Assembly: GCA_965242925.1 (NCBI GenBank)
Contig: CBDEUM010000014.1
Span: 64,001 to 128,000 of the forward strand
Direction: 5' to 3'
DNA length: 64,000 nt
Source: Roseibacillus sp.
Lineage (GTDB): Bacteria; Verrucomicrobiota; Verrucomicrobiia; Verrucomicrobiales; Akkermansiaceae
A program made the position numbers and the translations under genes. The notes below the pieces were generated by a model. The model made no database searches and was not told the origin of the DNA. It saw only the letters and a list, made by a program, of their open reading frames with translations. This document shows, in pieces, positions 8,212-56,152 of the stretch; position 1 is the first letter of the stretch; each line of letters starts with the position of its first letter.

Positions 8212-8253
8212 GGAGGCATCCTACCCTGCAAAAGATCAGGGTCAAGCGCGCCC

Positions 8254-8303
8254 TCGCGACCTGGGCCCTTTCGCGACCTGGGCCCTTTCGCGACCTGGGC
8301 CCT
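8254..8303. repeat. 17 bp tandem repeat (tcgcgacctgggccctt), about three copies
   Basis: Read directly; it abuts the apbE stop codon. Confidence 0.92.
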
Positions 8304-10002: not shown

Positions 10003-10008
10003 CGCAAA

Positions 10009-10524
10009 TCACCTGGGTCGAACCTGGTCCAAGTAGAGGGCCACCCTCCCCATTTCGGTCAAGGCCCTGGTCGACAACGTCGCTCCTGCAATGTTGTTGA
10101 TACGGCTACTGAGTTTTCCGTTCGAACCAAGGGTTCCTCCCTTGAACTGGTTGGTAAAGGAGGTCCGCCTGACTTCAGCCCCGATCGTCTCCCGGTAGAT
10201 CAATAGCCTCACCTGCTCGATCTTTCCTCCACTCACCACGTATCCCGTGGTGATCGGCTGGGTCTTCCCGACCTTCTCCAGAATGATTACCATGCGCCTG
10301 CCGGACATCCAGTAACGGACCTTGGAGGGCCGGTACTCATGGCCCAGCAGACGCTTGATACGGCTCTGGTCGACCGCCGTGAGGGTGAGCATCCTGGTGG
10401 GCGGAATCTGTCCCCCACAAGCCGACCGGATGAATTCGGAGGGCTTCTGGTACACCGTAGTCGCCGCCATCCCGGAAAGGGAGGCGGCGACCAGGGTTAT
10501 GAGTGTTAAAACGCGTAGCAACAC
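10009..10524 (-). CDS. Exported FMN-binding domain protein (likely ApbE substrate)
   Basis: Signal peptide, GKTQPIT, YRETIGAEV, FTNQFKG, and flavinylation-like motif INNIAGATLS. Confidence 0.88.
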   Translation of the reverse strand: MLLRVLTLITLVAASLSGMAATTVYQKPSEFIRSACGGQIPPTRMLTLTAVDQSRIKRLLGHEYRPSKVRYWMSGRRMVIILEKVGKTQPITTGYVVSGGKIEQVRLLIYRETIGAEVRRTSFTNQFKGGTLGSNGKLSSRINNIAGATLSTRALTEMGRVALYLDQVRPR

Positions 10525-10538
10525 GCTGTGCTCAACAA

Positions 10539-11621
10539 TTAAAAGCTGTAACCCATTCCGAGGTTGAAGGAATCATTTCCGTCCTCGTCAGTGTAGTCGC
10601 CCTTGAAGACGACATGATCGACAGGCCAGTAATTGACCCCCACCGAAACCGAATCGATCTCACCACCACCAGTGTCCCATTCATGATAGCGCGCAAAGAC
10701 CCCCATCTTGCCGTTGCCGATATCGAAGCCGTAGGAAGGCTCGATGTAGTATCCCCATTGCTCATCCTTGCCGGCTGCTGCTGCGGCGGCGCCATCAATA
10801 TCCCAGCTTGCAACCAGCCCGCGCAGGCGGAAAGCGCCCATCTGGACATCAGCCGTCGCACCAAGGAGCAGGGCCGAGGCATCGGCTCCCCCACCCTGCG
10901 AAATATCAGACTGATAGTTGGCGAAGGCGGAGACATTAACCCCGGAGAGGCCACTGTAGGTGACGCGGGCCGTAGCGGCGGCGTCTTCGGCCACTGCCTT
11001 GGCAACCTTCTGACGTCCGCCGCGGATGCTGAAGGCATCCGTCTTCAGTCCGGAGTGCACTGCAAGATCCCACGAGAGACCGCCCTCGGTGCTTTTGGAC
11101 AGGGCCAGACCGGCCTCCCACCAGGTTGACGGAATAATATTCTTCTCAACCGGATTGCGCTCAACCCCGTAGAAGGTATCCGGCTCGTGTCTCTCATTGA
11201 GGGTCCCCACGGGAACCAGGAAGAGACCGGCCTTCAGGTGCATCCCGCCATCGAAGGCCATGTCGATGTAGGCCTGCTCCAGCTCCACCTCCCCGGGCTT
11301 GCCGTCTCCCGAAAGAGAGTGCTCCAGCTCCAATTCCGAGTTGAGGGTGATGCGGTCGTTGAAACGATGGTTGACGAAAAGTACCCAGCGGTGGAAGTCG
11401 ATCGCGTTGTCCTTGTCGCTATTCAGGTTGAGGTGCAACTCGCCGTAGCCCCCCAAAGTGGTACGCTCAAACCAGTTGTTACCACCATAGTTGGTGCTGC
11501 CATTGTTATAGGCTTCGTCAATGGCCTCTTCCCCTTTCGCTGTCACTTGTGCGAAAGCTGCCAGGATTCCAAGGCCAAGGATAAGAGGCCTAGAGGCCCG
11601 CCGGATCTTAGTAGTTCTCAT
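10539..11621 (-). CDS. Outer-membrane porin (OprO/OprP-like beta-barrel)
   Basis: Signal peptide, LGGYGELH, DFHRWVLF, SELELEH, VELEQAYID, HEPDTFYGVERNPVE, C-terminal GYSF. Start moved to ATG 11621. Confidence 0.85.
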   Translation of the reverse strand: MRTTKIRRASRPLILGLGILAAFAQVTAKGEEAIDEAYNNGSTNYGGNNWFERTTLGGYGELHLNLNSDKDNAIDFHRWVLFVNHRFNDRITLNSELELEHSLSGDGKPGEVELEQAYIDMAFDGGMHLKAGLFLVPVGTLNERHEPDTFYGVERNPVEKNIIPSTWWEAGLALSKSTEGGLSWDLAVHSGLKTDAFSIRGGRQKVAKAVAEDAAATARVTYSGLSGVNVSAFANYQSDISQGGGADASALLLGATADVQMGAFRLRGLVASWDIDGAAAAAAGKDEQWGYYIEPSYGFDIGNGKMGVFARYHEWDTGGGEIDSVSVGVNYWPVDHVVFKGDYTDEDGNDSFNLGMGYSF

Positions 11622-11695
11622 TTTCAGTTTGTCGGATTGGTTACCCGCAAAGAGCGGTGCCAGTTGAGGCTCTCTCAAAAGCCTGGAAAGTTATT

Positions 11696-11714
11696 AATGA
11701 GAATGAGTCTCATC
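11696..11714. promoter_or_regulatory. Fur-box-like operator upstream of the porin-ApbE operon
   Basis: aaTGAGAAT-G-AGTCTCAtc is a 7-1-7 inverted repeat one mismatch from TGAGAATnATTCTCA, 75 bp upstream of the porin start. Confidence 0.7.
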
Positions 11715-12057
11715 AGCAAGAGGTTTCTCTGAATCCTCCAATTTAAGTCATAAGTTACTTAATTTAAGTTTTTTATATATCGCGTTAGAGCGGTCGTTCT
11801 CCCGCTTTAATCCTCAATTATCGCGCGATCTCTCGAAAATTCGGTTTCCCAGGCCCGCTTGGGCAGCTCCGCTTCTTTCGTCCCGGATTATTCCATTCCA
11901 CCCGGAGCCCGCCGGAAAGGCGCTAATACATGCAATACCGGGCTCGGTGCGAACCCTTCGAGGATGAACACGGGCATTTTCAGCATCCTGCACTTTAACC
12001 ATCGGTCATCTCTCTGTTTTCCCTTCCGCTTCATTCATCCCCTCCCAGAATGACCGC

Positions 12058-13242
12058 ATGCCTCGCCCGCTCGCCACCTTGCTCGCCGCCTCTGTTCTCT
12101 GCTCCCTCGCTCAGGCGGAAAACAAGCCCTCCCTGCGCCGGGGCGGTTATTTCAAGCCGGAGCAGGGGAAGGCCGAACTGGATCGCATCACCAGGAAGAT
12201 CCCCGACTTGGAGACGTGGAAAAAACGTCGCGCCGCAGTTCGGCAGGGCATCCTGGAAGGGGCCGCCCTGCATCCCCTCCCCCGCCGGACACCCCTCAAC
12301 CCGCTCCGCCACTCCAAGCGCAGCCACCCCGGCTACACGGTCGAAAACGTGGCCCTTGAAACTGCACCCGGCCTCTTCCTCTGCGGAAACCTCTACCTCC
12401 CTTCCAACCCCTCGGAGAACATGGCCGCCATCCTCTGTCCCCACGGCCACGCCCGGGACCCGAACTACACCAAGGAGGGACGCCTCCGACCGGAGATGCA
12501 GTACCGCTGCGCCACCCTTGCCCGCATGGGGGCTGCTGTTTTTTCCTATGACATGGTCGGCTATTCTGATTCCCGCAAGCAGGGATGGAATCACAATCAC
12601 GGGGACCAGGTCCTGCGCCTCCAGTGCTGGAACAGCATCCGGGCCGTCGACTTCATGCTCTCCCTGCCCAGAGTCGACCCCGGGCGGGTGGGCGTAACGG
12701 GGGCCTCCGGCGGCGGCACCCAGACCTTCCTTCTCACCGCCCTCGATGATCGCATCGCGGCGGCTGCTCCATGCGTCATGGTCTCCGCCCACTTCTACGG
12801 CGGCTGCGGTTGCGAGAGTGGCGTGCCCATCCACGTGCGCCCCCATCACATCACCAACAATACCGAGATCGCGGCCCTCTGTGCCCCCCGTCCCATGCTG
12901 CTCATCTCCTGCGGTGGCGACTGGACCGCCCACACCCCCAGGGTCGAATTCCCCTTCGTCCAGCGCATCTACGAATTCTACGGCAGGAGAAACCTGGTGG
13001 AAAATGCCCACCTCTCCAAGGAGAACCACGACTATGGCGAGTCCAAGCGGCAACCCATGTATGACTTCTTCGCCAGACACCTGAAACTCGACCGCAGCAG
13101 GTGGAAAACCGCGGACGGAACAAAAATGGACGAATCGAAAGTCGTTATCGAGTCCCACCAGACCCTGCAGGTGTTCACCGAAAAGCATCCTCTCCCCAGG
13201 CACGCCCTCAAGGCGAACTCCAGAGTGGAACTGCCGCGCTGA
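12058..13242 (+). CDS. Secreted alpha/beta-hydrolase, acetylxylan-esterase-like
   Basis: Signal peptide, GYTVENV, LCPHGH, YDMVGY, nucleophile elbow GVTGASGGG, HDYG. Confidence 0.85.
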   Translation: MPRPLATLLAASVLCSLAQAENKPSLRRGGYFKPEQGKAELDRITRKIPDLETWKKRRAAVRQGILEGAALHPLPRRTPLNPLRHSKRSHPGYTVENVALETAPGLFLCGNLYLPSNPSENMAAILCPHGHARDPNYTKEGRLRPEMQYRCATLARMGAAVFSYDMVGYSDSRKQGWNHNHGDQVLRLQCWNSIRAVDFMLSLPRVDPGRVGVTGASGGGTQTFLLTALDDRIAAAAPCVMVSAHFYGGCGCESGVPIHVRPHHITNNTEIAALCAPRPMLLISCGGDWTAHTPRVEFPFVQRIYEFYGRRNLVENAHLSKENHDYGESKRQPMYDFFARHLKLDRSRWKTADGTKMDESKVVIESHQTLQVFTEKHPLPRHALKANSRVELPR

Positions 13243-13254
13243 CCTGACGGAACC

Positions 13255-14172
13255 CTACTCCGTCCCCTTCCAGTCCCGCCACAGCCACCGCATGGTGTCG
13301 GGGAAGATCGCACCCCCGTGCTTTCCGTTGTGGCTGCCCTCGCCCCAGACCGCCCTGTGGTCATACTTCCTGAACTGGAGAGCCTTCTCCATCTGCAGAT
13401 TGCCCAACCACCAGTTGCCGTGGGCATTGTCCAGGTCGTTGGAACCATCCTGCAGGAAGACACGCAGCGGTTTGTTCTCCGTCTTGCGGATAAGGGCCGG
13501 ATAGACGTGCCCCCCCCGGATGTTGGTAAAACTTCCGATATGGCTGACCACCTTGCGAAAGAGATCGGGACGTTCCCAGGCGGCCGTAAAGGCACAGATT
13601 CCACCCGAACTCATCCCGCAGATCGCCCGCATGGCAGGATCGTTGGTGAGCTTGTGGGATTTCCCCACCTCCGCAAGGATCTCCTTCTCGAGAAAGGTCA
13701 CGTAGTCAGCGCTCAGCGAGTCGTATTCCACGCTGCGGTTTCTTTTCACGCCCGGGGGGGCTTTCCACCCCTGCCGCCCGTCGAGCTTGTCGGTAAAGAG
13801 TCCTGGATTGAGGAAAATCCCGATCGTAACCGGCATCTCGCCCCTGTGGATCAGATTATCAAAGACGATCGGCACGCGAATGTCACCCACCTCATCCACG
13901 TAGGCATGTCCATCCTGGAAGATCATCACCGCCGCCGCCTTGCTCCCGTCGTAGTGGGCGGGCACGTATAAATACCACTGCCGCAGCGTCCCCTGGAGGA
14001 TTCTGCTCTTCCACTCGTGACGAGTGACCTTTCCCCGGGGCACTCCATCCTGGCGCCTTGAGTCGGGACCATGAGCAAAGGTGGAATTTCCGGGGTTGCC
14101 CTCCTGGCCCGAAGCGAGGAGGGGCAGGCTGCAGCACAACGCGAGCAGGAATGGGAAAGAGAGGCGGGTCAT
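13255..14172 (-). CDS. Secreted esterase, Fes/enterochelin-esterase-like alpha/beta-hydrolase
   Basis: GVPRGKV, YVPAHYDG, MIFQDG, NRSVEYD, GMSSGG, SHIGSF. Start moved to ATG 14172, where a signal peptide begins. Confidence 0.87.
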   Translation of the reverse strand: MTRLSFPFLLALCCSLPLLASGQEGNPGNSTFAHGPDSRRQDGVPRGKVTRHEWKSRILQGTLRQWYLYVPAHYDGSKAAAVMIFQDGHAYVDEVGDIRVPIVFDNLIHRGEMPVTIGIFLNPGLFTDKLDGRQGWKAPPGVKRNRSVEYDSLSADYVTFLEKEILAEVGKSHKLTNDPAMRAICGMSSGGICAFTAAWERPDLFRKVVSHIGSFTNIRGGHVYPALIRKTENKPLRVFLQDGSNDLDNAHGNWWLGNLQMEKALQFRKYDHRAVWGEGSHNGKHGGAIFPDTMRWLWRDWKGTE

Positions 14173-14514
14173 CTGGCAAAACGACAGATTCCCCTGTCGC
14201 GCTGCCCTTTTACTGTGATCATGCCCGATCACACTGAAAAAATTCGGAGGCGCTCCGGGGGCAAAACCCCGCAATTTTCGCTCTTCGACAATATCCGCAC
14301 ACGTGGTCCACCCGCCTGCCCGGCGCCGGATTCAGAGACCCTTCCCGCCCCCATGAGGCCTTCGCCAATTTTCTACACAAAAGATCGCAACTGGTCCGCT
14401 AAAAAAGTAGCATTTAGATCGTAACCCTTACCCCGCAGAAAGCGAAAAGCAATCTCCTCTTGGCACCAGCGAGGTGTTATTGCTCGCTCAAATCGAACAA
14501 AACTCAGCAACAAC

Positions 14515-43827: not shown

Positions 43828-45087
43828 ATGAGATCGATTCAAAAACGGAAGGGTTCTCCAAGGAACCGGCGAGATGTTTTGAAGTCCGCGGGTTGCATAT
43901 TGATGTTGCCTGCTTTGGAAAGCTTCGGTCAAGAGGCCAAGGGCGATGATGCCGTGAAGGCGAATCGCCTGTTTTGTATGAATATCGGCAACGGCATGTG
44001 TTCTGACAACTTCCCGACGTCGACGGGCAACGACTATCAGAGCTCTTCTACTTTCCAGCCGCTGGAAAAATTGAAGGATGATTTCACTCTCTGTACGAAT
44101 TTAAGGAACTACGGGAATCATGAAAGCACGATGTACGCTTTTGCTGAATACTCTGACCACACAAATCCCCAGTTGATTCAAGATTCAGTTGATGAAATTG
44201 CGGCTTCTCACATTGGCAATGACACGCGCATTAGGAATTTGGTCGTCGAACAGAGGCACTCCTATGGCATCTCCTGGAAGGGTGGATTGCCAGTTTCTCC
44301 AATCACGAATGGAGAGATTTTGTTCGAAACCATATTCGGCAAAGTCGACAAGAAAAAGCGTGCCGAGTTGCTGGCGCTCAAGAAATCGATGTTGGATGCG
44401 ACCAGGGAGGAAGCTAAGAGCATGATGCGTAAAGTTTCTGAGACAGACCGGGTCAAATTGGATGAGTACTTTTCCAGTTTGCGTGAATCTGAAAAGTCGA
44501 TCCAGAGATCTGAGCGCTGGTTGAGCGAAAAACACGTAGACGTGCCATTCCCTGAAAACGTAGCGTTCAAAACGGATGGTCTTACCGAGTATCTGCAAAA
44601 GATTCTAAAATGCACCTACTTCAATGAACGTTCCACTTATTTGGATTTACTCTTTCTGGCATTCAAATTCGACATCACTCGAGTGGCCAATGTGTATGGT
44701 GAATGGAATTGGCTTGGTCACCATACAGATTCCCACGCGGTTAAAACCGAAGAAGGATTTATTAAGAACATCGAGGCGGACCAAGCCTACATGATGCAGA
44801 CGGCTCGTTTCTTGGACAAACTCAAATCGACTAAGACAAAAGCGGGTGGAACCTTACTGGATCAAACGGTTTGCTTGATCACCAGTTCCCTGAGTATTAG
44901 CAAAGAAGAGGGCCCTCACGGCATGAAGAATAACCCCGTGATTGTCGCTGGTGGCGGCTTTGAACATGGTAAACATATTAAGTTCAACGGTACGGATAAC
45001 CGTAACGACGTCTACCTCGCAGCCTTGCAGCAGCTGGGTCTCGAAACCGAACGTTTTGGCACCAGTAGTAGGAGTGCCAAGCTCTAA
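43828..45087 (+). CDS. DUF1552 (HXXSHH-type) protein
   Basis: NRRDVLK...LPALES, FQPLE, SVDEIAA, KSMLD, DRVKLDEYFSSLRE, DITRV, GHHTDSH, GTLLDQT, AGGG. Confidence 0.88.
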   Translation: MRSIQKRKGSPRNRRDVLKSAGCILMLPALESFGQEAKGDDAVKANRLFCMNIGNGMCSDNFPTSTGNDYQSSSTFQPLEKLKDDFTLCTNLRNYGNHESTMYAFAEYSDHTNPQLIQDSVDEIAASHIGNDTRIRNLVVEQRHSYGISWKGGLPVSPITNGEILFETIFGKVDKKKRAELLALKKSMLDATREEAKSMMRKVSETDRVKLDEYFSSLRESEKSIQRSERWLSEKHVDVPFPENVAFKTDGLTEYLQKILKCTYFNERSTYLDLLFLAFKFDITRVANVYGEWNWLGHHTDSHAVKTEEGFIKNIEADQAYMMQTARFLDKLKSTKTKAGGTLLDQTVCLITSSLSISKEEGPHGMKNNPVIVAGGGFEHGKHIKFNGTDNRNDVYLAALQQLGLETERFGTSSRSAKL

Positions 45088-45132
45088 ACGACGCGGGGAC
45101 AGTCACTTCGTAATGGAAAAAGGATAGGTGCC

Positions 45133-47682
45133 ATGAGATCCGTTTCCTCCCTTACGTTTTTGATGGTCGTGGCTCTAGGGAGTGCCCCTGCGGTTGGTGC
45201 TGAAAAACACTTTCCTGAGCTCGACCAAAGCAAAGCCTTCTTGAACGCCCATTGCGTGAGCTGTCATGGCAATGAAAAGAGCAAGGGCGATCATAATTTC
45301 GAAAAGTTCGATGGCAAAGATTGGGCCAATCACGAACTGCTGAATGACGTCTTGACGGTTTTAAAAGAAAGGGAAATGCCGCCCAAGAAAGCTAAGAGCA
45401 AACCCTCGGCGAAGGAGCTGGCAGCCTTTGAAAAACTCTTGGGCGAGCAGTATTTCTCGATCAAAGCAAAGTTGCCCGGGGTAATCACGCGTTTGAACCG
45501 CGCGGAATATGAAAACACGATCAACGATTCTTTTTTCTCCAAGTTAGAAGTCAAAAACTACTTGCCGGTAGACAACACCAGAGATGGCTTTGACAACGAA
45601 GGCGATAAACTCGTTATGTCACCCTATGCCATGGATAGCTATTTTCGAGTTGCCTCAGGAATAGCCGAGAAGGTCGTGGGAGGCATGCCCGGTCCTTCTA
45701 CAACCGTTTATACGTACAAGAATTCCAAAGTGCGCAGATTAGGCAGCAAAGGATTTGCGTACTATGAGGATACTAATGACGGTTTGACTACAGAGGGGTT
45801 TTATTACAGAGATTATTCTCGTGGAGTTGGATTCGCGTATGACGTGAGATTGCCAGGCTACTACGATGTGAAGATCAATGGGCATTTCACGTTTTATGAT
45901 CGTTCCATTAAGCACCAGGAACGTGATTTAAATTTCAAGGTCGACCCGGGTAAAAAAAATGAACGGTTGAGAATCACAACCAATGTAGACCCTAAGATCA
46001 GTAGAGAACCACTTAAGACCCATGAGTTTTTATTAAACGATACAGTGCGGGTCTATTTGGAGCCTGGGCAGAATCTTGTTCTTTATAGTCACAACTATGC
46101 TTATCCGTTGCCCAAGGATCTCAGCAAACTCACGCGGATCCCCCCGCTGCCGAAAGATAAGAAGCTAGCCGAACTGCCAAGGACGAGCTTGCACTTCATC
46201 TCGGCTGAAGTTACCGGCCCCTTCTATGATAGCTGGCCTCCCAAAAATGATTTTTACAACACGTACTATGAAGGTCTGAAGGGCAACGATCCACACGAAA
46301 TATACCAGCAATTCATTAGGGAGTTGGCCATTAAACTCTTCCGCCGACCTGTGAGTGACAAGGAATTGAATCGCTATTTCGATGTTGCAAAAAAGAGCTA
46401 TGAAAGGGATGAAAATGTCTTCAATGCCGTGCAAGCGGCCTTGACGATGATGCTCTGCTCACCAAATTTTCTGTATAAGGATGAAGGTGCTTCTCTGGAT
46501 CTCGACGACTATGCGATTGCGTCCAGGTTGTCTTACTTTTTGTGGAATTCACTTCCCGACGACCGTTTGATCAAGCTGGCTTCTGAGGGGAAGTTAATGG
46601 ATTCAAGCGTTCGTTCCGCGGAGGCCTTAAGGATGCTGCAAGACCCTAAAGCTCGGCGTTTTATTAGTAATTTTACAGAGCAGTGGCTTGAGCTTCACAA
46701 AATAGACATCGTGAATGTTCAGGCGGACATCCTCGCGCATACGTTTGGGGATAGGCTTGGTGAAAAAACAGCAAAACTGAAACCCTTCTTGGTGCAGGAA
46801 AGCATTGAGTTCTTCAAGGTGATCTTGAATGAGAACCTGAGTCTCCTGAGTTTTATTGATTCTGATTTCGTGGTGATCAACAGACCGTTGAATGACATTT
46901 ATCAATTAGAACTCCCTGAAGAAGAGGAATTGCCAAACAAAGCCGATCAAAAAGACTCTAAGTTGATAGTGAACGACAAAAAGTTGCGGCGCCAAAGGGC
47001 CTTTCAAAAAGTCATGCTCGATAAAGAGTCGCTGCGTGGTGGCCTACTAACACAGGCTGGTGTCTTGATGATGACCACCAATGGCGAATTCACGAATCCT
47101 TTCTATCGGGGCGCCTGGGTGGCTAAAAATGTCTATGGGCTGGAGTTGAAACTTCCTGCCAATCTTGAAGTAGAAGCCCTGAAAGCGCCCACGGAAACAT
47201 TCACGATTAAAGACAGTATTAATGAGCATCGTAACGACCCTGCCTGTGCCTCTTGCCACAGCAAGATGGATCCCTTTGGTTTGGCCATGGAGAATTTCGA
47301 TGTTTTGGGTCGGTATCGCGAGACTTACCGGAAGTTTGTCGTGACCAAAATACCCGAAGAGAAGAAAGAAGGAAAAGTGGTGAAGAAAGAACGCATCACT
47401 CGCGAGTATGTTGACACGACCAAGGTCGAGTCTGACGCTGTTCATCGTGATGGTCGTACCATCGATGGCATGGAAGGTCTTAAGAGAATCCTCTTAGAAG
47501 ACAAAGATAAGATTGCCAGGAATTTGCTCACCAAGCTTTCTGAATATGCGATGGGAAGAGAAATGAATTATGCCGATTCTGAGATGATTCACCGGCTCTT
47601 AGAAGCATCGAAGAAGAATGATTATAAGTTGCGTGATTTGATGCTTAGCATCATTGCTGACGATTCATTCACAGAACGATAA
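45133..47682 (+). CDS. DUF1592/1588/1587/1595/1585 cytochrome-c-like protein
   Basis: CVSCHG, RLNRAEYENT, GFDN, SPNFLY, ASRLSYFLWNSLPD, RGGLLTQAG, CASCHSKMDPFG. Confidence 0.9.
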   Translation: MRSVSSLTFLMVVALGSAPAVGAEKHFPELDQSKAFLNAHCVSCHGNEKSKGDHNFEKFDGKDWANHELLNDVLTVLKEREMPPKKAKSKPSAKELAAFEKLLGEQYFSIKAKLPGVITRLNRAEYENTINDSFFSKLEVKNYLPVDNTRDGFDNEGDKLVMSPYAMDSYFRVASGIAEKVVGGMPGPSTTVYTYKNSKVRRLGSKGFAYYEDTNDGLTTEGFYYRDYSRGVGFAYDVRLPGYYDVKINGHFTFYDRSIKHQERDLNFKVDPGKKNERLRITTNVDPKISREPLKTHEFLLNDTVRVYLEPGQNLVLYSHNYAYPLPKDLSKLTRIPPLPKDKKLAELPRTSLHFISAEVTGPFYDSWPPKNDFYNTYYEGLKGNDPHEIYQQFIRELAIKLFRRPVSDKELNRYFDVAKKSYERDENVFNAVQAALTMMLCSPNFLYKDEGASLDLDDYAIASRLSYFLWNSLPDDRLIKLASEGKLMDSSVRSAEALRMLQDPKARRFISNFTEQWLELHKIDIVNVQADILAHTFGDRLGEKTAKLKPFLVQESIEFFKVILNENLSLLSFIDSDFVVINRPLNDIYQLELPEEEELPNKADQKDSKLIVNDKKLRRQRAFQKVMLDKESLRGGLLTQAGVLMMTTNGEFTNPFYRGAWVAKNVYGLELKLPANLEVEALKAPTETFTIKDSINEHRNDPACASCHSKMDPFGLAMENFDVLGRYRETYRKFVVTKIPEEKKEGKVVKKERITREYVDTTKVESDAVHRDGRTIDGMEGLKRILLEDKDKIARNLLTKLSEYAMGREMNYADSEMIHRLLEASKKNDYKLRDLMLSIIADDSFTER

Positions 47683-48055: not shown

Positions 48056-49786
48056 CTAGAAGGAGGCCGTCAGACCCACGTGGCCCCGCGGGCCGTCGTC
48101 CCCTTCCAGCGGCACGCCAACATCGGCGCGCAGGTTGAGGTGGCGGCCTATCTGCGCCCGCAGGCCGGCCCCCACGCTGGTGAGGCTTTCCTGGTCCTCC
48201 CGTCCCGGTGTGATTTCATCCCGCCAGCCCCCGCCGTGATCCAGGAAGCCGAGGAACTGAACCTGGACCGGAAAGTGCTCCCCGGTGGGCAGAGTCACCG
48301 GCGGGGTGCGGACCTCGGCCGAAAGGAGGTAACCGCGGTCGGACAGGAAATCGCGCTCCTCAAACCCGCGTACGGTGGAGTGTCCACCGAGGCTGAGTTG
48401 CTCGGTGGGCAGGAGTGCTCCACTCCCGATCTGGAATTGTCCTCTCGCACGCAACGTCCACGCCCCGGGGAGCCGCTGCGTCCAGACAGCCCGGGCTCGT
48501 CCGTAAAGGTAGTTGGCTTCCGCCCCCGCCCGAAAATTCTGGAAATCACTCGTCGAATTCTTCCCCCCGAGTTCCCCGGGGCTGCCCACCACCGAGGCGT
48601 TCAGCTCGAGACTGCCCCGGTTCGCGAACTGACGGCGGGCCCGGTAGTCGGCGCGGAACTGAACCAGCTCCACTCCCGCGCCGGCACTGCCATCAAACCC
48701 TCCAAAGACGAGGAAATTGTCGGAGGACTTGTACTCCACCCCCACGCTGAGCTCCTGCCGGAAGTCGTTCCAGCGATTCAGCTGCATGCCATAGGACGCC
48801 CCGACCTGCCAGCTTGTCCCGGCCGAGTCGACCAGGACACCCGCCAGATAATCCTGGGTGGAGATTTCCGCCCAGCTGCCCGTCAGGCGCACGAAGTGAT
48901 GCCGGGAGTGGATGGGAATCTCCCAGCTCACGGCATGCGCCAGGAGTTCATCAAGCGAATCACCGGTGGTGAACTGGTAACTGATCGACTGATCGAGGCC
49001 AAAGGCATTCCCCCAGTTGAATCCCGCGAGGAAACGGTTTTCCCCGGACACCTCGGCTCCGCTGTTCTCATAGCCGGCATAACCGCGCCAGGGGCGCCGC
49101 TCGCTGAAGGCAAAGACCAGATCTGCCTCTCCTGCCCCCGCGCCGGGTGCGGCGTAGAGGGAGGCCGGGCGAAACGGGTTGCGATTGAACCAGTCGAGAT
49201 GACGCTGCAGTTCGCTGGTCAGGAGAACCTCTCCATCCTGCAGTCGGACCGCTCCCGCCAGCAGCTCCTCGTTGAAGATTCCACCCACCTGCATCCCCAC
49301 CGTGCCCACCAGCCCGTCGATGACCATGAGTTCGATGCTCCCTTCGCCGAGCTCCTGATCGGGCGCATAAATGTCGGTAACCGGGCGATCGTGCAGTTCG
49401 TAATAGCGCAGGAGGGTTTCGATCAACCGGTCGAGTCCGCTCTCGGTGAGGGGCTCTCCCAGAAAGGGTCGCAGCGTCCCGGCCAGCCCCTCGTGATTGA
49501 TGGTGAGACCCAAGGCCTCCACCCGTCCACCCTGCGGAAAGCCATGGTTGAATTCCGGCCCCTGCCCGGACCCGGTCAGTTTGATCGTCTCCAGGTGGGC
49601 CATCAGAACAGCCGACTCGTCGACCTCCCCGCGCACGACTGGTTCGCGCTTTCCGAAGGGCAGACGCCCCTCCGTTTCACCTTCCACCCCGCGGGGGGCC
49701 AACTCGCTGCCCTCCTGCCCGTGGAGCGGAACCGGCAGGTGCAGCCAGAAAAAAAAAGCGGCGATAATGGTGAAGATTCTGCCCAT
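48056..49786 (-). CDS. ShlB/FhaC/HecB (TpsB) family outer-membrane transporter
   Basis: Signal peptide at ATG 49786, POTRA-like region (YAPDQELGEGSIELMVIDG), NRNPFR, LLPTEQLSLGGHSTVRGF, C-terminal Phe. Confidence 0.9.
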   Translation of the reverse strand: MGRIFTIIAAFFFWLHLPVPLHGQEGSELAPRGVEGETEGRLPFGKREPVVRGEVDESAVLMAHLETIKLTGSGQGPEFNHGFPQGGRVEALGLTINHEGLAGTLRPFLGEPLTESGLDRLIETLLRYYELHDRPVTDIYAPDQELGEGSIELMVIDGLVGTVGMQVGGIFNEELLAGAVRLQDGEVLLTSELQRHLDWFNRNPFRPASLYAAPGAGAGEADLVFAFSERRPWRGYAGYENSGAEVSGENRFLAGFNWGNAFGLDQSISYQFTTGDSLDELLAHAVSWEIPIHSRHHFVRLTGSWAEISTQDYLAGVLVDSAGTSWQVGASYGMQLNRWNDFRQELSVGVEYKSSDNFLVFGGFDGSAGAGVELVQFRADYRARRQFANRGSLELNASVVGSPGELGGKNSTSDFQNFRAGAEANYLYGRARAVWTQRLPGAWTLRARGQFQIGSGALLPTEQLSLGGHSTVRGFEERDFLSDRGYLLSAEVRTPPVTLPTGEHFPVQVQFLGFLDHGGGWRDEITPGREDQESLTSVGAGLRAQIGRHLNLRADVGVPLEGDDGPRGHVGLTASF

Positions 49787-50078
49787 CCGTATTGACCAGA
49801 CCGAGTATCCTGCGATTGACCCTCCGCCTTGGAAAGACCTTTCCCCGACCGTCAGAGGATTCCCGGAGGGAAGGTTTCCTTTTGCTTTTCCTGGAGCAAA
49901 GGCACCCTCGCGATTCACCGACCCGAGAGGCGGCTTGAAAACTCTTCCCATGACGCCCTATCCTTTGCTTTGCTGGGCCGAAACCAAACCCCGCTCCTTC
50001 CCCTGCAGAGAATCTCCAGAAAAATCCACATTCGCTGAAAATGGTCCCGGTCCGCATCCGGTTGGAACCAGACAACAG

Positions 50079-53000
50079 ATGATTGCTGCAACTCGCCGCG
50101 CCCTCCTGTCGCTCACGATTATCGTCGTGGGCCTGACCGCTGCCGTACAGGCCGACCTCCTGCGTTACCGGACTGCGATCAGGAGCTTGGCCGAGGGACA
50201 GGCGAATTTCCGAACGGTCGAGGCCCTCCCCGCCCGGGATGCCACAAACCCCGCCCGTGCATTTGCCGGAGGATCATTCACCGGACGATTCAGAATCGGA
50301 TTCGATCCCACTATCACCGTGTCGAGTCTGAATGAGCAGGACGGCAACCTCGTTGGGTTCACTCGCAGCCTGGACAACAAGGACTGGAACGTCGATTGGG
50401 TCCTCTCTGTCGGATGTGAACCGGGGAACGCCGTCATCAATGACGTCGCCATCCGGCCCGATGGGCTGTTGCTGGCAGGCGGCACCTTTGAGGACAAGGC
50501 CACCTTCGATCGGCGGCAGCAACCCCCCGTGGAACTCACCACGCCAGGCCGAGTGGCAAGTTTCATTGCCCTTGCCGACCCCTCGGGTGCCTGGATCGAC
50601 GCCTGGGTCATTCCCGGGATGGAGTTGCAGAGCATGGCTGTTGATGACGAAGGCGAGGTCTTCGTAACCGGGCCCGGCACCCTGGCTCGCCGCTACACTG
50701 CAAACCTTCAGGAGGTTTGGGATATCCAGCCCCCAGCAGGCATCCTCTCTCTTGATCATATCTCCGTAGGCATCGGCAGGAACCAACCGTTTGTCTATGT
50801 CCAGGGGACCTCGACCCGCCCGGGAGGCAATGATCAGGACGTCTTTGTGGTTCAGTTGGAGAAGCCCGCGGGAGTCAGGCGCTGGAACACCGTAATCAAT
50901 TCCCGGGGCGGCGAGGAACATGCGGGTGGAATCGGAGTCGGCCCCCTGGGCGACCTGCGGGTGGCAGTCTCCTCCGATGGCACTGATCTCTCGGTAGCCA
51001 ACAGCGTGGTCCGTGACAATCCCACCACGCCGGCTCGCCACGGATACCTCCTGTTTCTCGACGCGACCAGTGGCAAGCTCCTCAACGACCGGCTCCTCGG
51101 CAGGGCCACTGAGGCACAGGGCATTCTCGAAACGCACAATCTCGACATTGACTACGCTGGGAACACTTACGTCTCGGCAAGCTTCACGGGCTCCTACCAG
51201 TTCATCGGTCTCGATCAAAAGGGACAGGAAGACGCCGCGGTCGTAGTGGTGGATGCTCTGGGAGTCCCCATGCGATTCATGGATTCCAGCGGCGAGGCAC
51301 GGGCATCCGGTCTCGACGTGGCCGCCGCCGGCCGGGATCTCCAGGTTCTCGTGGGTGCTGTTCAGGGCACCACTGACGAGTTATTCGGGGAGAGTCCGGT
51401 CGCTGCATCACAGGACAACAAAGCCTATATCGCCGTCCTTGATAAACCGGATGACCAGCAGTCCTATCTCATCACTCCGCCTAATCCCGACCAGGGGCTG
51501 GGCCTTCTGGTTCAGGACATCAACCAGCTGGAAGGCGAAATCTATCGCATCATCGACAACCCCCAACTCAACATCCGCCTGGTATCCGCCTATCTCACCC
51601 CGGAACAAGTCAACAACCTCCAACAGCAGGGTGCCAGGGTGGAGCAGGATCGCGAACTGGTCCCTCCTGGCGTGGATGGCCTCCTGTGGGAGGAGCTGCA
51701 GAACGGTGAGCTGATCCTGGGCCTCCCGGACCTCCCGGACCTCCCGGACCTCCCGGACCTCCCGGACCTCCCGGACCTCCCGGACCTCCCGCAGAAAGGC
51801 CTCAACGGCGCGGGCCTCCCCGCTGGTTGGGCCCTCGAGACTCTCAACAAGGCTCCCAGCCCTCAAAACGAGGTCTATTGCTACCCCGAGACTTGCCGGG
51901 AAACATTACTCTACCTCATTGACACCGGAATTGACACCTCCAGCGGTGTTTTCGCCAGCAATCCCAATCTTGAAATCAGTGAGTCCATCGTGATCCGTGC
52001 AACGGGAGATCCCCTCGAGCCTCTCAGCGAGTATGATCCAACAATCTTCGAACACGGGACCGAGATGCTCAGCATGATCGCCGGGACCGGCTATGGGGCA
52101 GCCCAGGGAACACCCATCAAGGTGATTAACTATAACATCTATCCCGATGGCAATACTACCACCATCAGCGCACTCATCGAGGCAATCATCCGGGCCAGCA
52201 CCCACAAGAACCTCCACCACCCCTACGACCCCGCGGCCTTTTGTATCGCGAGTAGCGCGGACACGCCCGGGGCCAGCCCAGCCAGCCTGGAGAGCGCCAT
52301 CGACTCCACTCTCGACAATGTCTATGCCACCGTCCTCGTGTCGGCGGGCAACACCGACGGCCTGGCCTCGAATTACACCCCATCCGATCTCGGTAGTAAA
52401 AAGGGGGTGATTTGCGTGGGAGCCATCGATGCCAGCGCTCTGCCCCAGCAGGTCGAGAATACCCGCGGAGGCAAGGGGGTGGATCTCTGGGCCCCAGGTG
52501 AGATGGTGGCCGCTGCGGACGTAGACGGAAACCCCACCACCATGACCGGGACGAGCGCCTCCACCGCCCTCGCCACCGGGGCAGCCCTGATCTACCTCAG
52601 CGCCAATCCGGTCCTCACTCCCTCCCAGATTGAGTGTGCCATGGTCGACAGCGCACAGGAGGTCGTTCCGAGCCCGAAGAAGATCGTTCACGTCCCCGAT
52701 CCCACAGACGCTTCCGTGGCAAACGACCTCAATCACATGGTCTACGCAGACTGGGCCGCCTGGTATGAACTTGATCCGGAGGCAGGACCGGACGAGGACC
52801 CCGACAACGATGACTGGAGTAACGAGCAGGAGTATGTCTGGGGGTTCGACCCGCGAAGCCACAATTATGAAGCCTCTATCCTGACCATGGACTACGATCC
52901 GGATACCGGGACCGCCACCTTCGAGTTTCCCCTGTCCTGTTTCCTGTACCAGCCGTCAGCCCTCGCCAGTCCCTTCACCTTGCGGGACGGTTCCAGTCTG

Positions 53001-53165
53001 ACCATCGAACGAAGCGACGATCTCACTCCTGGACACTGGATCGACTGCACCAGCGAGGTCCTGAACCTGGATGAGGAGGGCCACGAAAGTAATGTCGTGA
53101 CCATCAGTTTCGACGTCGAGGCAACGAAATCCCGATGTTTCTACCGAATTCGTGTCCACCAGTAG
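50079..53165 (+). CDS. Secreted S8 (subtilisin-like) protease with N-terminal beta-propeller, I9-like propeptide and acidic C-terminal domain
   Basis: Signal peptide ending AVQA; triad LIDTGID / HGT / GTS; SAGN; VDLWAPG; C-terminal DPDNDDWSNEQEYVWGFDP...SDDL...W...FYRIRV. Start moved from 49497. Confidence 0.88.
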   Translation: MIAATRRALLSLTIIVVGLTAAVQADLLRYRTAIRSLAEGQANFRTVEALPARDATNPARAFAGGSFTGRFRIGFDPTITVSSLNEQDGNLVGFTRSLDNKDWNVDWVLSVGCEPGNAVINDVAIRPDGLLLAGGTFEDKATFDRRQQPPVELTTPGRVASFIALADPSGAWIDAWVIPGMELQSMAVDDEGEVFVTGPGTLARRYTANLQEVWDIQPPAGILSLDHISVGIGRNQPFVYVQGTSTRPGGNDQDVFVVQLEKPAGVRRWNTVINSRGGEEHAGGIGVGPLGDLRVAVSSDGTDLSVANSVVRDNPTTPARHGYLLFLDATSGKLLNDRLLGRATEAQGILETHNLDIDYAGNTYVSASFTGSYQFIGLDQKGQEDAAVVVVDALGVPMRFMDSSGEARASGLDVAAAGRDLQVLVGAVQGTTDELFGESPVAASQDNKAYIAVLDKPDDQQSYLITPPNPDQGLGLLVQDINQLEGEIYRIIDNPQLNIRLVSAYLTPEQVNNLQQQGARVEQDRELVPPGVDGLLWEELQNGELILGLPDLPDLPDLPDLPDLPDLPDLPQKGLNGAGLPAGWALETLNKAPSPQNEVYCYPETCRETLLYLIDTGIDTSSGVFASNPNLEISESIVIRATGDPLEPLSEYDPTIFEHGTEMLSMIAGTGYGAAQGTPIKVINYNIYPDGNTTTISALIEAIIRASTHKNLHHPYDPAAFCIASSADTPGASPASLESAIDSTLDNVYATVLVSAGNTDGLASNYTPSDLGSKKGVICVGAIDASALPQQVENTRGGKGVDLWAPGEMVAAADVDGNPTTMTGTSASTALATGAALIYLSANPVLTPSQIECAMVDSAQEVVPSPKKIVHVPDPTDASVANDLNHMVYADWAAWYELDPEAGPDEDPDNDDWSNEQEYVWGFDPRSHNYEASILTMDYDPDTGTATFEFPLSCFLYQPSALASPFTLRDGSSLTIERSDDLTPGHWIDCTSEVLNLDEEGHESNVVTISFDVEATKSRCFYRIRVHQ
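51723..51791 (+). repeat. Perfect 9 bp coding tandem repeat (ctcccggac)x7 plus 6 bp, encoding (LPD)7LP
   Basis: Read directly from the sequence. Confidence 0.97.
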
Positions 53166-56152
53166 GACCCTGCATCCGGGAAATCCTCGCGACGTTACGC
53201 AGGACACTCCCGGTGATGATTGCGGTCCTGGCCACCCCTTACACCCTGGACGCACAGGCAGAGGAACCGCCCGGCGTGGAGGAGCTTCTCGCCCAGGGCC
53301 GGTTCGAGGAAGCCCTGCCCACTCTCGTCCGGTTGGAACAGGAATGGAGTCGGGAAGTCCACGACAACGACACGAAGGAGACTCGCCTGAATTGGGCTCT
53401 TTCTCTACAGGGCCGCGGGAGCGCGGAGGCCCGGCTCCAGCAATTTGACGCGGCTCTCGACCACCTCCGGCATGCACGCGACCTGGCCGTCGAGGGGCAA
53501 TTCGGCCCCGAGTTCCTGGCCGGGATCCTCGATGAACTCGGACGAACCGAGGGCAAGGCCGGCTCCTACGAGGAAGCCGGACAGTCCCTCCTCCAGGCCA
53601 TCGAGCAACACCGGAAACTCGATCCGGTCGACCGGGAACCATGGCTCTCTGCCAGCCAGAACCACCTGGGACTCGTCTACCTCACCACCGGTCGCTACGA
53701 GGAGGCGGGGCGAATTTTCCACGAAACCCTCGGCCAGGCTGGTGAGAACGAGGAAGCCCTTCGTTTCCAACACGAGTGCCTCGGCAGGTACTTTTACGTG
53801 ATGCGGAGCTACGCCAAGGCCGCCGAGCATCTCGAGGAGGCCCGGGAGCATGCCCTCGGCATCGAGGGCAGGAGAAAGGAGCACCCGGAGATCGTCAGTC
53901 TCACTGGTCAGATCGGCCTCGCGCTCCTGCGCCTCGGTCCTGAATCCCGCGATCTGGCCCGCCGCTACCTCCTGGAGGCGGCCAATCTCACCAGGGAACT
54001 GCAGAGCTCGCGGGTGAACCGCCTGGCCCTCGCTTCGCACCTCTCCAATCTCGGCTCCCTTGAACTGGAGGCTGAAGACAATGAGAAAGCCCGCGGACTC
54101 TTCCGGGAGGCACTCGGCATCTCCCGGGAGCTGCTGGGAGCCGACGCGCCCTCGCTGGCCCCCTACTACACCAACCTGGGCTTCGCGAACCAGCAACTGG
54201 GGGACTACCCGGAGGCCCGCAGGTCCTACCGAAGATCCGCGGATCTCTACCGCGCTTCCGTCGGCACCCGGCACCAGGCCTACGTCGAAGCTGAACTCAA
54301 CTATCTCGAGAGCCTCTTCCTCTCGACCTCCTCTACCGAAGAAACTGCGACCGAGACCAGGAAGCTCACCGCCCAGGCCCTCCAACTCTTCGATGACATC
54401 ATCGCCTTCGGCACCGAGCGCCAGCGTCTGAACTGGCTGCGCGAAAACCACCTTCTCACTCTTCCCTGCTCGCTGGGAAATGATCCCGCCTTCATTGCCG
54501 ACACCGTCCTGCGGACCAAGGCCCGCATTATCGACAGCCTCCTCTCCGAACAGCAGGACGCCGCCCGGGATCCCGAACTCAACCGGCTGAGCACCAGATT
54601 CGAGAGGAAACAGCGGGAACTCGACGACCTCCTCTTTCGCAATGAGGACCCGGACAAGATCAGCGCTGTCCACGAAGAGATCACCACCCTCGAAGGCAGG
54701 CTTCGAAGCGCCCGGCGCGGAGCAGCAGGAACCACCGTCAGGACCACCTGGAAAGATGTGCAGGATACCCTGCCGCCCGGAGCCGCCTTTGTCGACTACG
54801 TGCGCTACACCGACCTCACCAAGCCCGGAACAAGCAGCCTCTCCTACGGAGCGATCCTTATCCTGCCGGAAGGCGGGCCCAAGTGGATTCCCCTCGGCAC
54901 CGATAAGGATCTCACCATCTGGCTCGGCGTCCTCAAGGATCGCCTGCAATACCGCAGCTACCTCCTCAGTTCGACCGGTTCCGCCTCTCCTCCGGCCCTG
55001 CGCATGAGCTCTGCTCTCCACCGCCTGCACGACCTTTTCTGGGACCCGGTCGCCGCCCAGTTTCCCGAGGGAACGGACACGGTCGGAATCTCCCCGGATG
55101 CCGGCCTCAACTTCATCTCCTTCGCCGTCCTTCTCGACGACGAGGGACGATTCCTCGCCGAGAAATTCCAGCAGTTGGTTTACTACGCCAGCGCTCGGGA
55201 TCTCCTGCTCCGGAACGAGCGCCCCTCTTTGCAGGACGGTCCCTGGGCTGTCATTGCCGTGCCCGAGTTCGAAGAGCATGAGCAGGCGTCGGAGAGAGAA
55301 CGGGAGACGGCCGATGAGCTCAGCAAGATCGTACTGCAGAGTATCGAGGGCTTTGCCGACATCCCCGGGGTGCGGGAGGAAATGAAACTTCTCCGGAAGA
55401 TCATGCCGGCCCATTCCGGCGAAACCAGAATGATCAACGCCAACGAGGAAGATGTCCGCGGATTATCAGACAGCCCCGTTGTCCTTCACCTCGCCACCCA
55501 CGCTTTTCTCCTGCCTCCGGCGGAGGAAACAGCCTCCAACGAATTGCAGGACTACCACCAGGCACCCGATCACTTCTACCGCAGCGGCTTGGTCCTCACC
55601 GAGGCCAAGCGGGCCCACTCCGCCCGCGCCCGCGGTGTCGAAATCCCCTTCGACCGGGATGGCGTCCTCTTCTCCAATGAAGTAAAGAACCTCCCCCTCC
55701 GCAACACCCGTCTGGTCACCCTCTCCTCCTGCGATTCCGGCCTGGGTGAATCCGTGCGGGGCGATGGAGTGCTGGGACTCCGCCGGGGATTCACCCTCGC
55801 GGGCAGCTCCGCCATCCTCCTCAGCCTCTGGCCCGTTTCGGATGACAGCACTCCCGATTTCATGAAACACATGTACCAACTCTCTCTCGCCACCGACCGC
55901 ATCGGACAATCGCTCTGGGAAACCCAGCGACGCAGCCTGGCCGGGGTCGATCCTACCGACGATGCAGCCATGGAGGAAGCCGTCCTCCGCTATGGCTGCT
56001 TTGTCCTGTGCCAGCGTGGACCCCTGCAGACGGCGATCGAGATGCCGGAGATCAGGGAGCCCTCCAGGATCAGGTGGGCCCTCGCCCTGGCGGTGGCCGG
56101 CCTGCTCATCCTGGTGGCGACCAGAAAATGGAGAAAAAGCCAACCGGCATGA
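53135..56152 (+). CDS. TPR + CHAT domain (caspase/HetF-like) protein with C-terminal membrane anchor; start uncertain (53135, 53213 or 53216)
   Basis: TPR-like repeats (NHLGLVYLTTGRYEEA, SNLGSL, TNLGFA); ISPDAGLNFISFAVL; HLATHA; LVTLSSCDSG; LSLWPVSD; TM WALALAVAGLLILVA followed by RKWRK. Confidence 0.9.
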   Translation: MFLPNSCPPVGPCIREILATLRRTLPVMIAVLATPYTLDAQAEEPPGVEELLAQGRFEEALPTLVRLEQEWSREVHDNDTKETRLNWALSLQGRGSAEARLQQFDAALDHLRHARDLAVEGQFGPEFLAGILDELGRTEGKAGSYEEAGQSLLQAIEQHRKLDPVDREPWLSASQNHLGLVYLTTGRYEEAGRIFHETLGQAGENEEALRFQHECLGRYFYVMRSYAKAAEHLEEAREHALGIEGRRKEHPEIVSLTGQIGLALLRLGPESRDLARRYLLEAANLTRELQSSRVNRLALASHLSNLGSLELEAEDNEKARGLFREALGISRELLGADAPSLAPYYTNLGFANQQLGDYPEARRSYRRSADLYRASVGTRHQAYVEAELNYLESLFLSTSSTEETATETRKLTAQALQLFDDIIAFGTERQRLNWLRENHLLTLPCSLGNDPAFIADTVLRTKARIIDSLLSEQQDAARDPELNRLSTRFERKQRELDDLLFRNEDPDKISAVHEEITTLEGRLRSARRGAAGTTVRTTWKDVQDTLPPGAAFVDYVRYTDLTKPGTSSLSYGAILILPEGGPKWIPLGTDKDLTIWLGVLKDRLQYRSYLLSSTGSASPPALRMSSALHRLHDLFWDPVAAQFPEGTDTVGISPDAGLNFISFAVLLDDEGRFLAEKFQQLVYYASARDLLLRNERPSLQDGPWAVIAVPEFEEHEQASERERETADELSKIVLQSIEGFADIPGVREEMKLLRKIMPAHSGETRMINANEEDVRGLSDSPVVLHLATHAFLLPPAEETASNELQDYHQAPDHFYRSGLVLTEAKRAHSARARGVEIPFDRDGVLFSNEVKNLPLRNTRLVTLSSCDSGLGESVRGDGVLGLRRGFTLAGSSAILLSLWPVSDDSTPDFMKHMYQLSLATDRIGQSLWETQRRSLAGVDPTDDAAMEEAVLRYGCFVLCQRGPLQTAIEMPEIREPSRIRWALALAVAGLLILVATRKWRKSQPA

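Follow-up and report, generated by a model that had tools for sequence, protein, structure and literature searches.

A two-partner secretion pair, a subtilase and a TPR-CHAT protease encoded with a putative sigma/anti-sigma pair in Roseibacillus: a candidate protease-driven gene switch

Described systems closest to the Roseibacillus module

In Myxococcus xanthus, the anti-sigma factor DdvA carries a periplasmic TPR-CHAT region, and the passages of PMC11506125 that deal with it propose self-cleavage before RseP releases the sigma factor DdvS. Here we describe a related set of genes in Roseibacillus sp. (Verrucomicrobiota; GenBank assembly GCA_965242925.1), found by analysis of a stretch of 64,000 nucleotides (contig CBDEUM010000014.1, positions 64,001 to 128,000 of the forward strand; hereafter the window). 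The window contains tpsB, encoding an outer-membrane transporter of the two-partner secretion (TPS) type, and divergently from it the genes of an S8 subtilase and of a TPR-CHAT protease (Table 1). As read from sequence, this trio makes up one half of an envelope module of six genes, whose second half, on another contig of the same genome (C29), encodes a small TPS protein that we call mini-TpsA, a protein resembling sigma factors of the extracytoplasmic function (ECF) type and a putative anti-sigma factor.

The likeness to DdvS/DdvA lies in an ECF-type sigma factor with a single-pass anti-sigma factor (predicted here), in a periplasmic TPR-CHAT region with a His-Cys dyad, and in a cleavage by CHAT and then by RseP that is proposed in each. 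Unlike in DdvA, CHAT stands here on a polypeptide of its own, which by its sequence carries a signal peptide and, in Roseibacillus, also a C-terminal membrane anchor; the anti-sigma factor has about 200 amino acids (aa) and no zinc motif, and a subtilase and the TpsB/mini-TpsA pair are added. A single polypeptide of the DdvA type, with zinc anti-sigma domain, transmembrane (TM) segment and TPR-CHAT, was not encountered, CHAT and anti-sigma being separate genes on separate contigs.

A second relative is ECF54, whose gene context is given, in the portion of the supplement devoted to it, as limited to Actinobacteria and made up of a sigma factor, a CarboxypepD_reg-like protein (+1), a subtilase and a TPR-CHAT protein, with no recognisable anti-sigma factor; the trio is catalogued there as gene context only, with no tested mechanism (PMC7826278 supplement, Casas-Pastor et al. 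2021). As far as that entry goes, the module shares with ECF54 the trio of ECF sigma factor, S8 subtilase and TPR-CHAT protein, a likeness by gene context and not by sigma-group assignment, and it differs from the entry in its diderm verrucomicrobial hosts, its membrane anti-sigma factor and its added TPS pair. No CarboxypepD_reg domain was seen among the open reading frames (ORFs) annotated in either locus. The source cited for the ECF54 context is reportedly Huang et al. 2015.

On the secretion side, the Bordetella FhaB/FhaC system combines two-partner secretion with the subtilisin autotransporter SphB1 and periplasmic proteases. In both, a TpsB of the Omp85 type and a cargo that begins with a TPS domain are encoded or act together with two proteases, one of the subtilisin family and one in the periplasm. 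Unlike FhaB, the cargo has about 370-420 aa (a TPS domain and a disordered tail) and not thousands of residues; the subtilase lacks an autotransporter barrel, the periplasmic protease is a CHAT protein of the caspase fold, and the module has its own sigma/anti-sigma pair.

Craspase, as set out in the relevant part of PMC10028731, comprises Cas7-11 of type III-E CRISPR (clustered regularly interspaced short palindromic repeats) with the TPR-CHAT protein Csx29, Csx30, Csx31 and an RpoE-type sigma factor. A TPR-CHAT protease is thus genetically tied to an ECF-type sigma factor in that account as it is here, and unlike the cytoplasmic, RNA-guided system portrayed there, the CHAT protein of Roseibacillus has export signals. 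No cas-family match was found among the annotated ORFs of either locus, a comparison that included no genome-wide cas7-11 search, and no CRISPR genes or genes of cyclic oligonucleotide-based anti-phage signalling systems (CBASS) were seen among the annotated neighbours. The systems of EACC2-caspase, ECF sigma factor and DUF1822 have another architecture and, in the sections describing them, no two-partner secretion (Kaur et al. 2021, PMC8195603). A literature search found no paper joining 'CHAT domain' with two-partner secretion and, among the papers listed, none joining it with ShlB, POTRA, TpsB or FhaC. Going by the parts of the above sources that treat them, sigma/TPR-CHAT/subtilase gene sets are already catalogued as ECF54, and the fused form, DdvA, has been solved structurally. 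Particular to the present case are a minimal TpsA missed by Pfam, a TpsB clade dedicated to it, the division of the module between two loci in Roseibacillus, a propeller-bearing subtilase, and a cultured host with a compact cluster.

The window trio and its partners on a second contig

The first-pass annotation of the window had called TpsB an orphan and had suggested the subtilase as its non-canonical cargo. A search with the Pfam TPS model (PF05860) gave no match in the window, as that annotation had noted, or in the whole genome of origin (G000), and the same search gave TPS domains in 5/5 related genomes. Three small TPS proteins are encoded beside S8-CHAT genes elsewhere, in G010 (373 aa, PF05860 8e-12), G037 (367 aa, 2e-5) and G017 (E 0.007 in a genome search), and in all three a signal peptide and a region resembling TPS are followed by a basic tail with (K/R)xSFFG at its C-terminal end. 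A profile of these three proteins detected one gene in G000, that of mini-TpsA on C29, outside the window. Because this family-specific profile found the gene, the Pfam result is a problem of sensitivity and not an absence; the protein has no Pfam match even at E 10. Its AlphaFold2 model has a predicted local distance difference test score (pLDDT) above 85 over residues 30-300 and a disordered tail from about residue 312, and the nine top Foldseek matches are TpsA secretion domains (EtpA, HMW1, HxuA and FHA; E 1e-5 to 7e-3, probability 1.00). Behind its signal peptide the protein has a TPS secretion domain, which includes a short beta-helix, and then a basic, disordered tail whose end, SFFGxRGG, is conserved. 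When run against other genomes of the order, the mini-TpsA profile aligned only to the first ~280 residues of TpsAs of 1400-3900 aa. From a collection of 5.8 billion proteins, of which the 8000 best word-sharing candidates were scored, it retrieved at least 49 proteins at E <= 1e-5, about 37 of them full-length (320-474 aa); where these have names at all, they are "hypothetical" or "filamentous hemagglutinin family protein".

Both partners of a type Vb secretion system, a ShlB/FhaC-type Omp85 barrel with POTRA and a cargo with an N-terminal TPS domain, were recognised. TpsB matched Pfam ShlB at 4e-26 (positions 1-310 of 311) and Omp85 at 1.6e-7, and was the single ShlB match of its genome in a genome-wide Pfam search; its POTRA_2 match (0.0025) is under the curated cut-off, and those of its relatives are above it. 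For the cargo, the PF05860 matches within the family, the profile and Foldseek agree. It is strongly supported that TpsB has a canonical cargo candidate in mini-TpsA, whose export by TpsB is predicted. With a cognate TpsA candidate on C29, and in the cluster itself in seven other genomes, the designation of TpsB as an orphan had to be abandoned.

Divergently from the mini-TpsA gene, C29 carries the genes of the sigma-like protein and of its membrane partner. A sigma-like protein of ~315 aa is encoded beside the mini-TpsA gene in 16/16 loci examined, and in most of them a gene for a single-pass membrane protein of ~200 aa follows. Alignment by hhalign of the sigma family to seven ECF sigma factors encoded in G000 covered residues 118-317, with regions 2 and 4, at 96.6% probability (E 5.7e-10), and an Atlas feature search with the sigma-like protein led to clusters in which 14-25% of the members carry Sigma70_r2 or Sigma70_ECF. 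The protein has regions 2 and 4, the only ones of an ECF sigma factor, behind an extra N-terminal extension, and these comparisons support the view that it behaves as an ECF-type sigma factor.

Complex prediction for the sigma-like protein and residues 1-72 of the membrane partner, its cytoplasmic part, gave an ipSAE of 0.78, against 0.00 for the best of three controls, a value that shows likeness and is not proof of binding. The runs had at least 78% of their contacts in common, with a partner pLDDT of at least 63, and on the sigma side the predicted contacts fall in the N-terminal extension and in the part with region 4. The mark is reached by 116 of 157 solved complexes and by 2 of 215 mismatched pairs, rates that hold only roughly here because our own alignments were supplied. 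In an ECF pair the anti-sigma factor is encoded next to the sigma factor and binds it; by gene position and in the predicted complex, the ~200-aa membrane protein looks like the anti-sigma factor of the sigma-like protein. An RseP-type M50 protease is encoded in the same genome.

Conservation of the window trio was followed in 41 genomes: besides G000, there were 19 from its genus, 5 from its family and 16 from its order. The trio tpsB-S8-CHAT was found on one contig and in the order of the window in 12 of the 19 same-genus genomes (G001, G003, G004, G005, G007, G008, G011, G012, G013, G015, G016 and G017), far beyond chance, so that the neighbourhood proposed by the first-pass annotation is indeed conserved. 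Five further genomes of the genus (G006, G009, G010, G014 and G018) have two of the three genes adjacent at contig ends, G019 has a partial tpsB at a contig end, and G002 lacks all five parts searched for (TpsB, S8, CHAT, mini-TpsA and sigma). Outside the genus, G037, from another family, encodes TpsB, a 605-aa S8 and an 873-aa TPR-CHAT protein in one co-directional run, and none of the remaining 20 genomes has the set.

The sigma gene and the full-length mini-TpsA gene were each found in 17/19 same-genus genomes and in G037, and they have the same overall phyletic pattern, with exceptions in G002, in G003 (mini-TpsA not found; the sigma gene lies 309 bases from the contig end) and in G018 (sigma gene not found; the mini-TpsA gene lies at a contig end). 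All six genes occur in one cluster, in varied order, at seven loci: G007, G017, G037, G365 (another genus of the family), L088 and L089 (unclassified Verrucomicrobiota records) and Haloferula rosea KCTC 22201 (L091). In H. rosea the genes are arranged on NZ_JAENII010000002.1 as TpsB 5097-6776 (-), S8 7040-8506 (+), mini-TpsA 8537-9625 (-), CHAT 9881-12550 (+), sigma 12659-13582 (+) and anti-sigma 13623-14222 (+). A 7.7-kb contig of G010 holds five of the six. The tpsB and mini-TpsA genes, which lie on C14 and C29 in G000, are ~19 kb apart in G004 and G011 and in the same cluster at the seven other loci. A search of 401 genomes of the phylum (185 genera) with the sigma profile, in which five first-look candidates were scored per genome, matched only G000 and G365 among the candidates scored, which makes the module a rare one.

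In a quick maximum-likelihood tree (IQ-TREE), 13 of the 14 system-linked TpsBs and two paralogues from G010 formed one clade with 99% support in the SH-like approximate likelihood ratio test (SH-aLRT), apart from eight TpsBs with other gene neighbours, giant TpsAs among them; the TpsB of G037, on a long branch, was left unplaced. The two additional G010 paralogues are L041 (G010:C60) and L043 (G010:C29). One of them has an in-frame TAG and faces the genes of a TPR-only protein and a HAMP-cyclase, and the other lies near tatC and the gene of a 1403-aa vWA protein.

The genes of the window were intact, with the domains that the first-pass annotation had given them, by Pfam, AlphaFold2 and Foldseek. 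In the subtilase, the triad D615, H659 and S826 and the oxyanion residue N758 are invariant in 17/17 aligned S8 homologues, as expected of a subtilase. Its AlphaFold2 model (mean pLDDT 80.3) has an all-beta N-terminal domain (30-466) and an alpha/beta propeptide-like unit (475-533), followed by a disordered linker, a subtilisin core and a C-terminal beta-sandwich. Foldseek matched the model to pro-subtilisins, PCSK9 and proteinase K, and its N-terminal domain to the propeller enzyme CylK; given this model and these matches, the description as propeller, propeptide and S8 domain stands. Propeller and propeptide are limited to S8 genes of the Roseibacillus type; the S8 proteins of other clusters are short (about 470-600 aa), and the catalytic and C-terminal domains are common to both forms. 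The linker between propeptide and catalytic domain contains a (PDL)n tandem repeat that is absent from all 16 other aligned S8 homologues, including the closest (79% identical), and that is therefore taken as a recent expansion.

The TPR-CHAT gene starts 31 nt before the end of the S8 gene, an overlap that suggests coupled synthesis. Its product is the single CHAT match in the genome, and its dyad H789 and C866, characteristic of the caspase-fold proteases of clan CD, is invariant in 6/6 homologues. A C-terminal TM helix is present in 4/6 homologues and not in those of G010 and G037. From the signal-like segment and the TM helix, both recognised by eye, the protein is read as a periplasmic protein tethered to the inner membrane. 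The divergent region of ~290 bp reported between tpsB and the S8 gene was confirmed, and alignment of nine same-genus loci revealed conserved blocks in it, among them the palindrome GGAAAGACCTTTCC at 49831-49844.

Table 1. Features of the module in the window and on contig C29 of the same genome (positions without prefix are those of the window; aa, amino acids; nt, nucleotides)
Feature	Position	Strand	Basis or remark
tpsB, ShlB/FhaC-type Omp85 transporter	48056-49786	-	576 aa from signal-peptide Met; longer ORF to 49951
Divergent control region, tpsB/S8	49787-50078	.	292 bp
Sigma-70-like promoter candidate TTGAAA-18-TATCCT	49935-49964	+	Consensus scan only; block conserved in 9 loci
ECF-type promoter motif TGAAAAT-N15-CCGGTTG	50036-50064	+	Ends 15 nt before S8 start codon
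S8 subtilase, exported, 1028 aa	50079-53165	+	Pfam Peptidase_S8 3.6e-17
S8 layout	aa 30-466; aa 475-533; aa ~600-860		Signal peptide, then beta-propeller; I9-like propeptide; linker, then S8 catalytic domain
S8 C-terminus	aa ~870-1028		Ca-motif/beta-sandwich domain
(PDL)n tandem repeat, 9-bp x 7.8, in S8 linker between propeptide and catalytic domain	51722-51791	+	Tandem Repeats Finder, 100% matches
TPR-CHAT caspase-fold protease, exported, 1005 aa	53135-56152	+	Pfam CHAT 9.5e-50, TPR_12 5.5e-24
TPR-CHAT layout	aa ~50-420; aa 627-936 (nt 55013-55942)		N-terminal signal-like segment, then TPR; CHAT
TPR-CHAT C-terminus	aa ~981-996		Putative TM anchor, then basic cytoplasmic tail RKWRKSQPA
Single-pass membrane partner, putative anti-sigma, ~200 aa	C29:153722-154327	-	Next to sigma gene
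ECF-type sigma factor, ~115-aa N-terminal extension	C29:154371-155309	-	hhalign
Mini-TpsA gene, ~415 aa	G000:C29:155466-156710	+	Family profile 9.8e-37

The promoter motif and the readings of the module

A motif of ECF-promoter type connects the two halves. TGAAAAT-N15-CCGGTTGG lies a few bases 5' of the start codon, with identical spacing, before both the S8 and the mini-TpsA genes (9 same-genus loci each), and the variant TGAAAAT-N14-GCGGTTGG lies between the stop codon of the sigma gene and the start codon of the anti-sigma gene; the general form upstream of the S8-CHAT, mini-TpsA and anti-sigma genes is TGAAAAT-N14/15-[CG]CGGTTGG. The motif occupies the same three positions in G007 and two of them in G017. 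In its strict form it occurs 4 times genome-wide, against a mean of 0.9 in 20 first-order Markov-simulated genomes, and in its relaxed form 9 times, against 1.6; the observed count was reached in 0/20 simulations in either case, and both counts are to be discounted by two sites because two sites defined the motif. Of the remaining sites, three stand before hairpin RNAs that are paralogous to each other, and three before genes whose products are exported.

The hairpin RNAs are of ~95 nt with an A-rich loop and stand with the motif at G000:C34:249142 (+), G000:C42:47278 (-) and G000:C34:139926 (-) (loci L111 and L112). The two that were folded have z-scores of -4.5 and -2.8, the RNAs have no Rfam match and no ORF, and they are a candidate small-RNA family of the same regulon. 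The three genes preceded by the relaxed motif (G000:C6:6001-7920, G000:C39:6218-8758 and G000:C29:121227-122564), two of which encode large proteins with signal peptides and repeats, may likewise be regulon members. In G017:C67 (L044), positions 3447-6260 hold an insertion between tpsB and the S8 gene, consisting of a gene for a right-handed beta-helix protein of 633 aa (Pfam Beta_helix 3e-11), with two motif-like sites before it, and an ORF of 289 aa.

Since a sigma factor and its membrane partner form the other half of the module, its likely purpose is transcriptional signalling and not protease export: the system is probably a protease-driven gene switch. We consider it reasonably probable that the module is a split variant, coupled to two-partner secretion, of the sigma/anti-sigma/TPR-CHAT/subtilase switch seen in DdvA/DdvS and in sets of the ECF54 type. 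In such a switch the anti-sigma factor would hold the sigma factor at the inner membrane, and TpsB would export mini-TpsA, placing its beta-helix on the cell surface. The periplasmic TPR-CHAT protein and the subtilase would carry out regulated proteolysis of the periplasmic domain of the anti-sigma factor, of the mini-TpsA tail, or of both; once a protease of the RseP type had completed the cleavage, the sigma factor would come free and would transcribe S8-CHAT, the genes of mini-TpsA and of the anti-sigma factor, and a small number of further targets. The export of mini-TpsA and the holding of the sigma factor by its partner rest on homology, fold, co-occurrence and prediction; that protease action frees the sigma factor is what we infer from the whole.

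Several observations weigh against this reading. The tpsB and mini-TpsA genes are unlinked in a genome that is a bin, 89.9% complete with 3.2% contamination; in G004 and G011 a single contig carries both halves at a distance of ~19 kb, which speaks against an artefact of binning. Neither the sigma-like protein nor the membrane protein gave a Pfam match, even at E 10, and against sequences of the PDB the sigma family profile gave only a chance-level match to a ribosomal protein. The membrane partner has no cysteine and is therefore not a zinc-type anti-sigma factor, and as sigma/anti-sigma complexes are common among solved structures, the complex score is to be read as likeness. The proteolytic relay is a proposal in each of its steps, and the complex that was predicted is that of sigma and anti-sigma, with neither CHAT nor S8 in it; the exported S8 may, moreover, be either periplasmic or extracellular. 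Only its position ties the motif to the sigma factor of the module; it did not turn up in the five remotest clusters (L088, L089, L091, L092 and L031), nor before tpsB or the sigma gene itself. Where present, it would make S8-CHAT and mini-TpsA outputs of the sigma factor, a role that fits pure output as well as it fits feedback.

The foremost alternative takes up this last point: the sigma pair would answer an unrelated envelope cue and switch on a secreted toolkit (mini-TpsA via TpsB, the subtilase and CHAT) for surface remodelling, nutrient acquisition or defence, with no feedback on the anti-sigma factor. The rare motif directly 5' of S8-CHAT and of the mini-TpsA gene would then simply mark regulon members, other motif-bearing genes encode secreted repeat proteins, and the propeller and C-terminal beta-sandwich of S8 resemble those of substrate-binding exoenzymes. 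We nevertheless hold it to be possible but rather unlikely. Outputs would be expected to vary, whereas sigma, CHAT and subtilase are kept together across Verrucomicrobiota, and comparable sets are known from Actinobacteria (ECF54) and Acidobacteriota. DdvA combines CHAT and anti-sigma factor in one protein; the Roseibacillus CHAT protein, read from its sequence as tethered to the inner membrane and facing the periplasm, would be on the same side as the outer domain of the anti-sigma factor; and a copy of the motif also precedes the anti-sigma gene, as in a feedback design.

The reading of the first-pass annotation, in which an orphan TpsB has the propeller-subtilase as non-canonical cargo and CHAT activates or releases the subtilase, appears improbable. 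It could draw on the conserved divergent control region between tpsB and S8, on their adjacency in the same 12 genomes of the genus, on the lack of a Pfam TPS domain in the genome, and on the coupled synthesis suggested by the overlap of S8 stop and CHAT start. A canonical TPS-domain cargo, however, co-occurs with tpsB and adjoins it in other genomes, and the N-terminus of S8 is a propeller and not a TPS beta-helix. That propeller is missing from the short S8 of seven clusters that retain TpsB, and in those clusters the gene order varies, with tpsB often beside the mini-TpsA gene (as in L088). Two elements of the earlier interpretation endure, namely that the trio co-occurs and functions as a unit and, in general terms, that proteases act in a cascade at the envelope; the orphan transporter and the subtilase as its cargo do not. 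That three unrelated genes stand side by side by chance is refuted, to all practical purposes, by synteny and co-occurrence that extend over a genus, two more genera belonging to its family or order and a number of unclassified Verrucomicrobiota, and by G002, which lacks all parts together.

Related contexts and biological meaning

Some neighbouring and more distant loci deserve mention. Directly upstream of the 3' end of tpsB, positions 43828-47682 of the window have 46-47% G+C, against ~61% around them, and carry genes for a DUF1552/HXXSHH protein and a multi-domain PSD/PSCyt protein with a cytochrome c motif; judged by composition, this stretch may be an acquired island. A different TpsB context within the same order is seen in L036 (G040:C96, 4207-15841), where a classical TpsB gene lies between the genes of a CHASE2-guanylate cyclase and of a 2261-aa TpsA (TPS and DUF5649 repeats). 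In Thiomargarita (L107), a TpsB gene lies less than 10 kb from the CHAT genes. An ECF sigma gene stands just upstream of CHAT in 7/8 distant acidobacterial relatives of the CHAT protein studied here; in these Acidobacteriota (L095, L096, L098, L100, L101, L102 and L105) it is a generic ECF sigma gene, 1.5-3 kb upstream and on the same strand, and L098 and L105 have an S8 gene downstream too.

To our knowledge, neither a substrate of the caspase-fold protease nor a role for the subtilase has so far been demonstrated in such gene sets. An outer-membrane pore and a minimal cargo are added here, and the system therefore has a defined candidate input or substrate. In the favoured reading as a gene switch, TpsB and mini-TpsA might serve as a trans-envelope sensor wire, an extension that we put forward tentatively and regard as possible although not likely. 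The TPS beta-helix would be on the surface and the SFFG tail in the periplasm, threaded through TpsB or parked at it; loss, pulling or cleavage at the surface, or the action of S8, would expose the tail to the TPR of the CHAT protein, which would cut the anti-sigma factor and free the sigma factor.

The case of TpsB illustrates that an apparently orphan transporter can have a cargo that is missed by the Pfam TPS model and encoded on another contig. The compact cluster of roughly 9-10 kb in Haloferula rosea KCTC 22201, a cultured bacterium that is not a pathogen, makes genetics feasible, from deletions and catalytic mutants to promoter reporters. If the sensor wire were true, the module would be the first type Vb system to act as the outer-membrane input of an ECF sigma pathway, with TpsB and mini-TpsA in the part played by TonB-dependent transducers in cell-surface signalling, and it would offer a tractable case of a caspase-fold protease that switches transcription from outside the cytoplasm.

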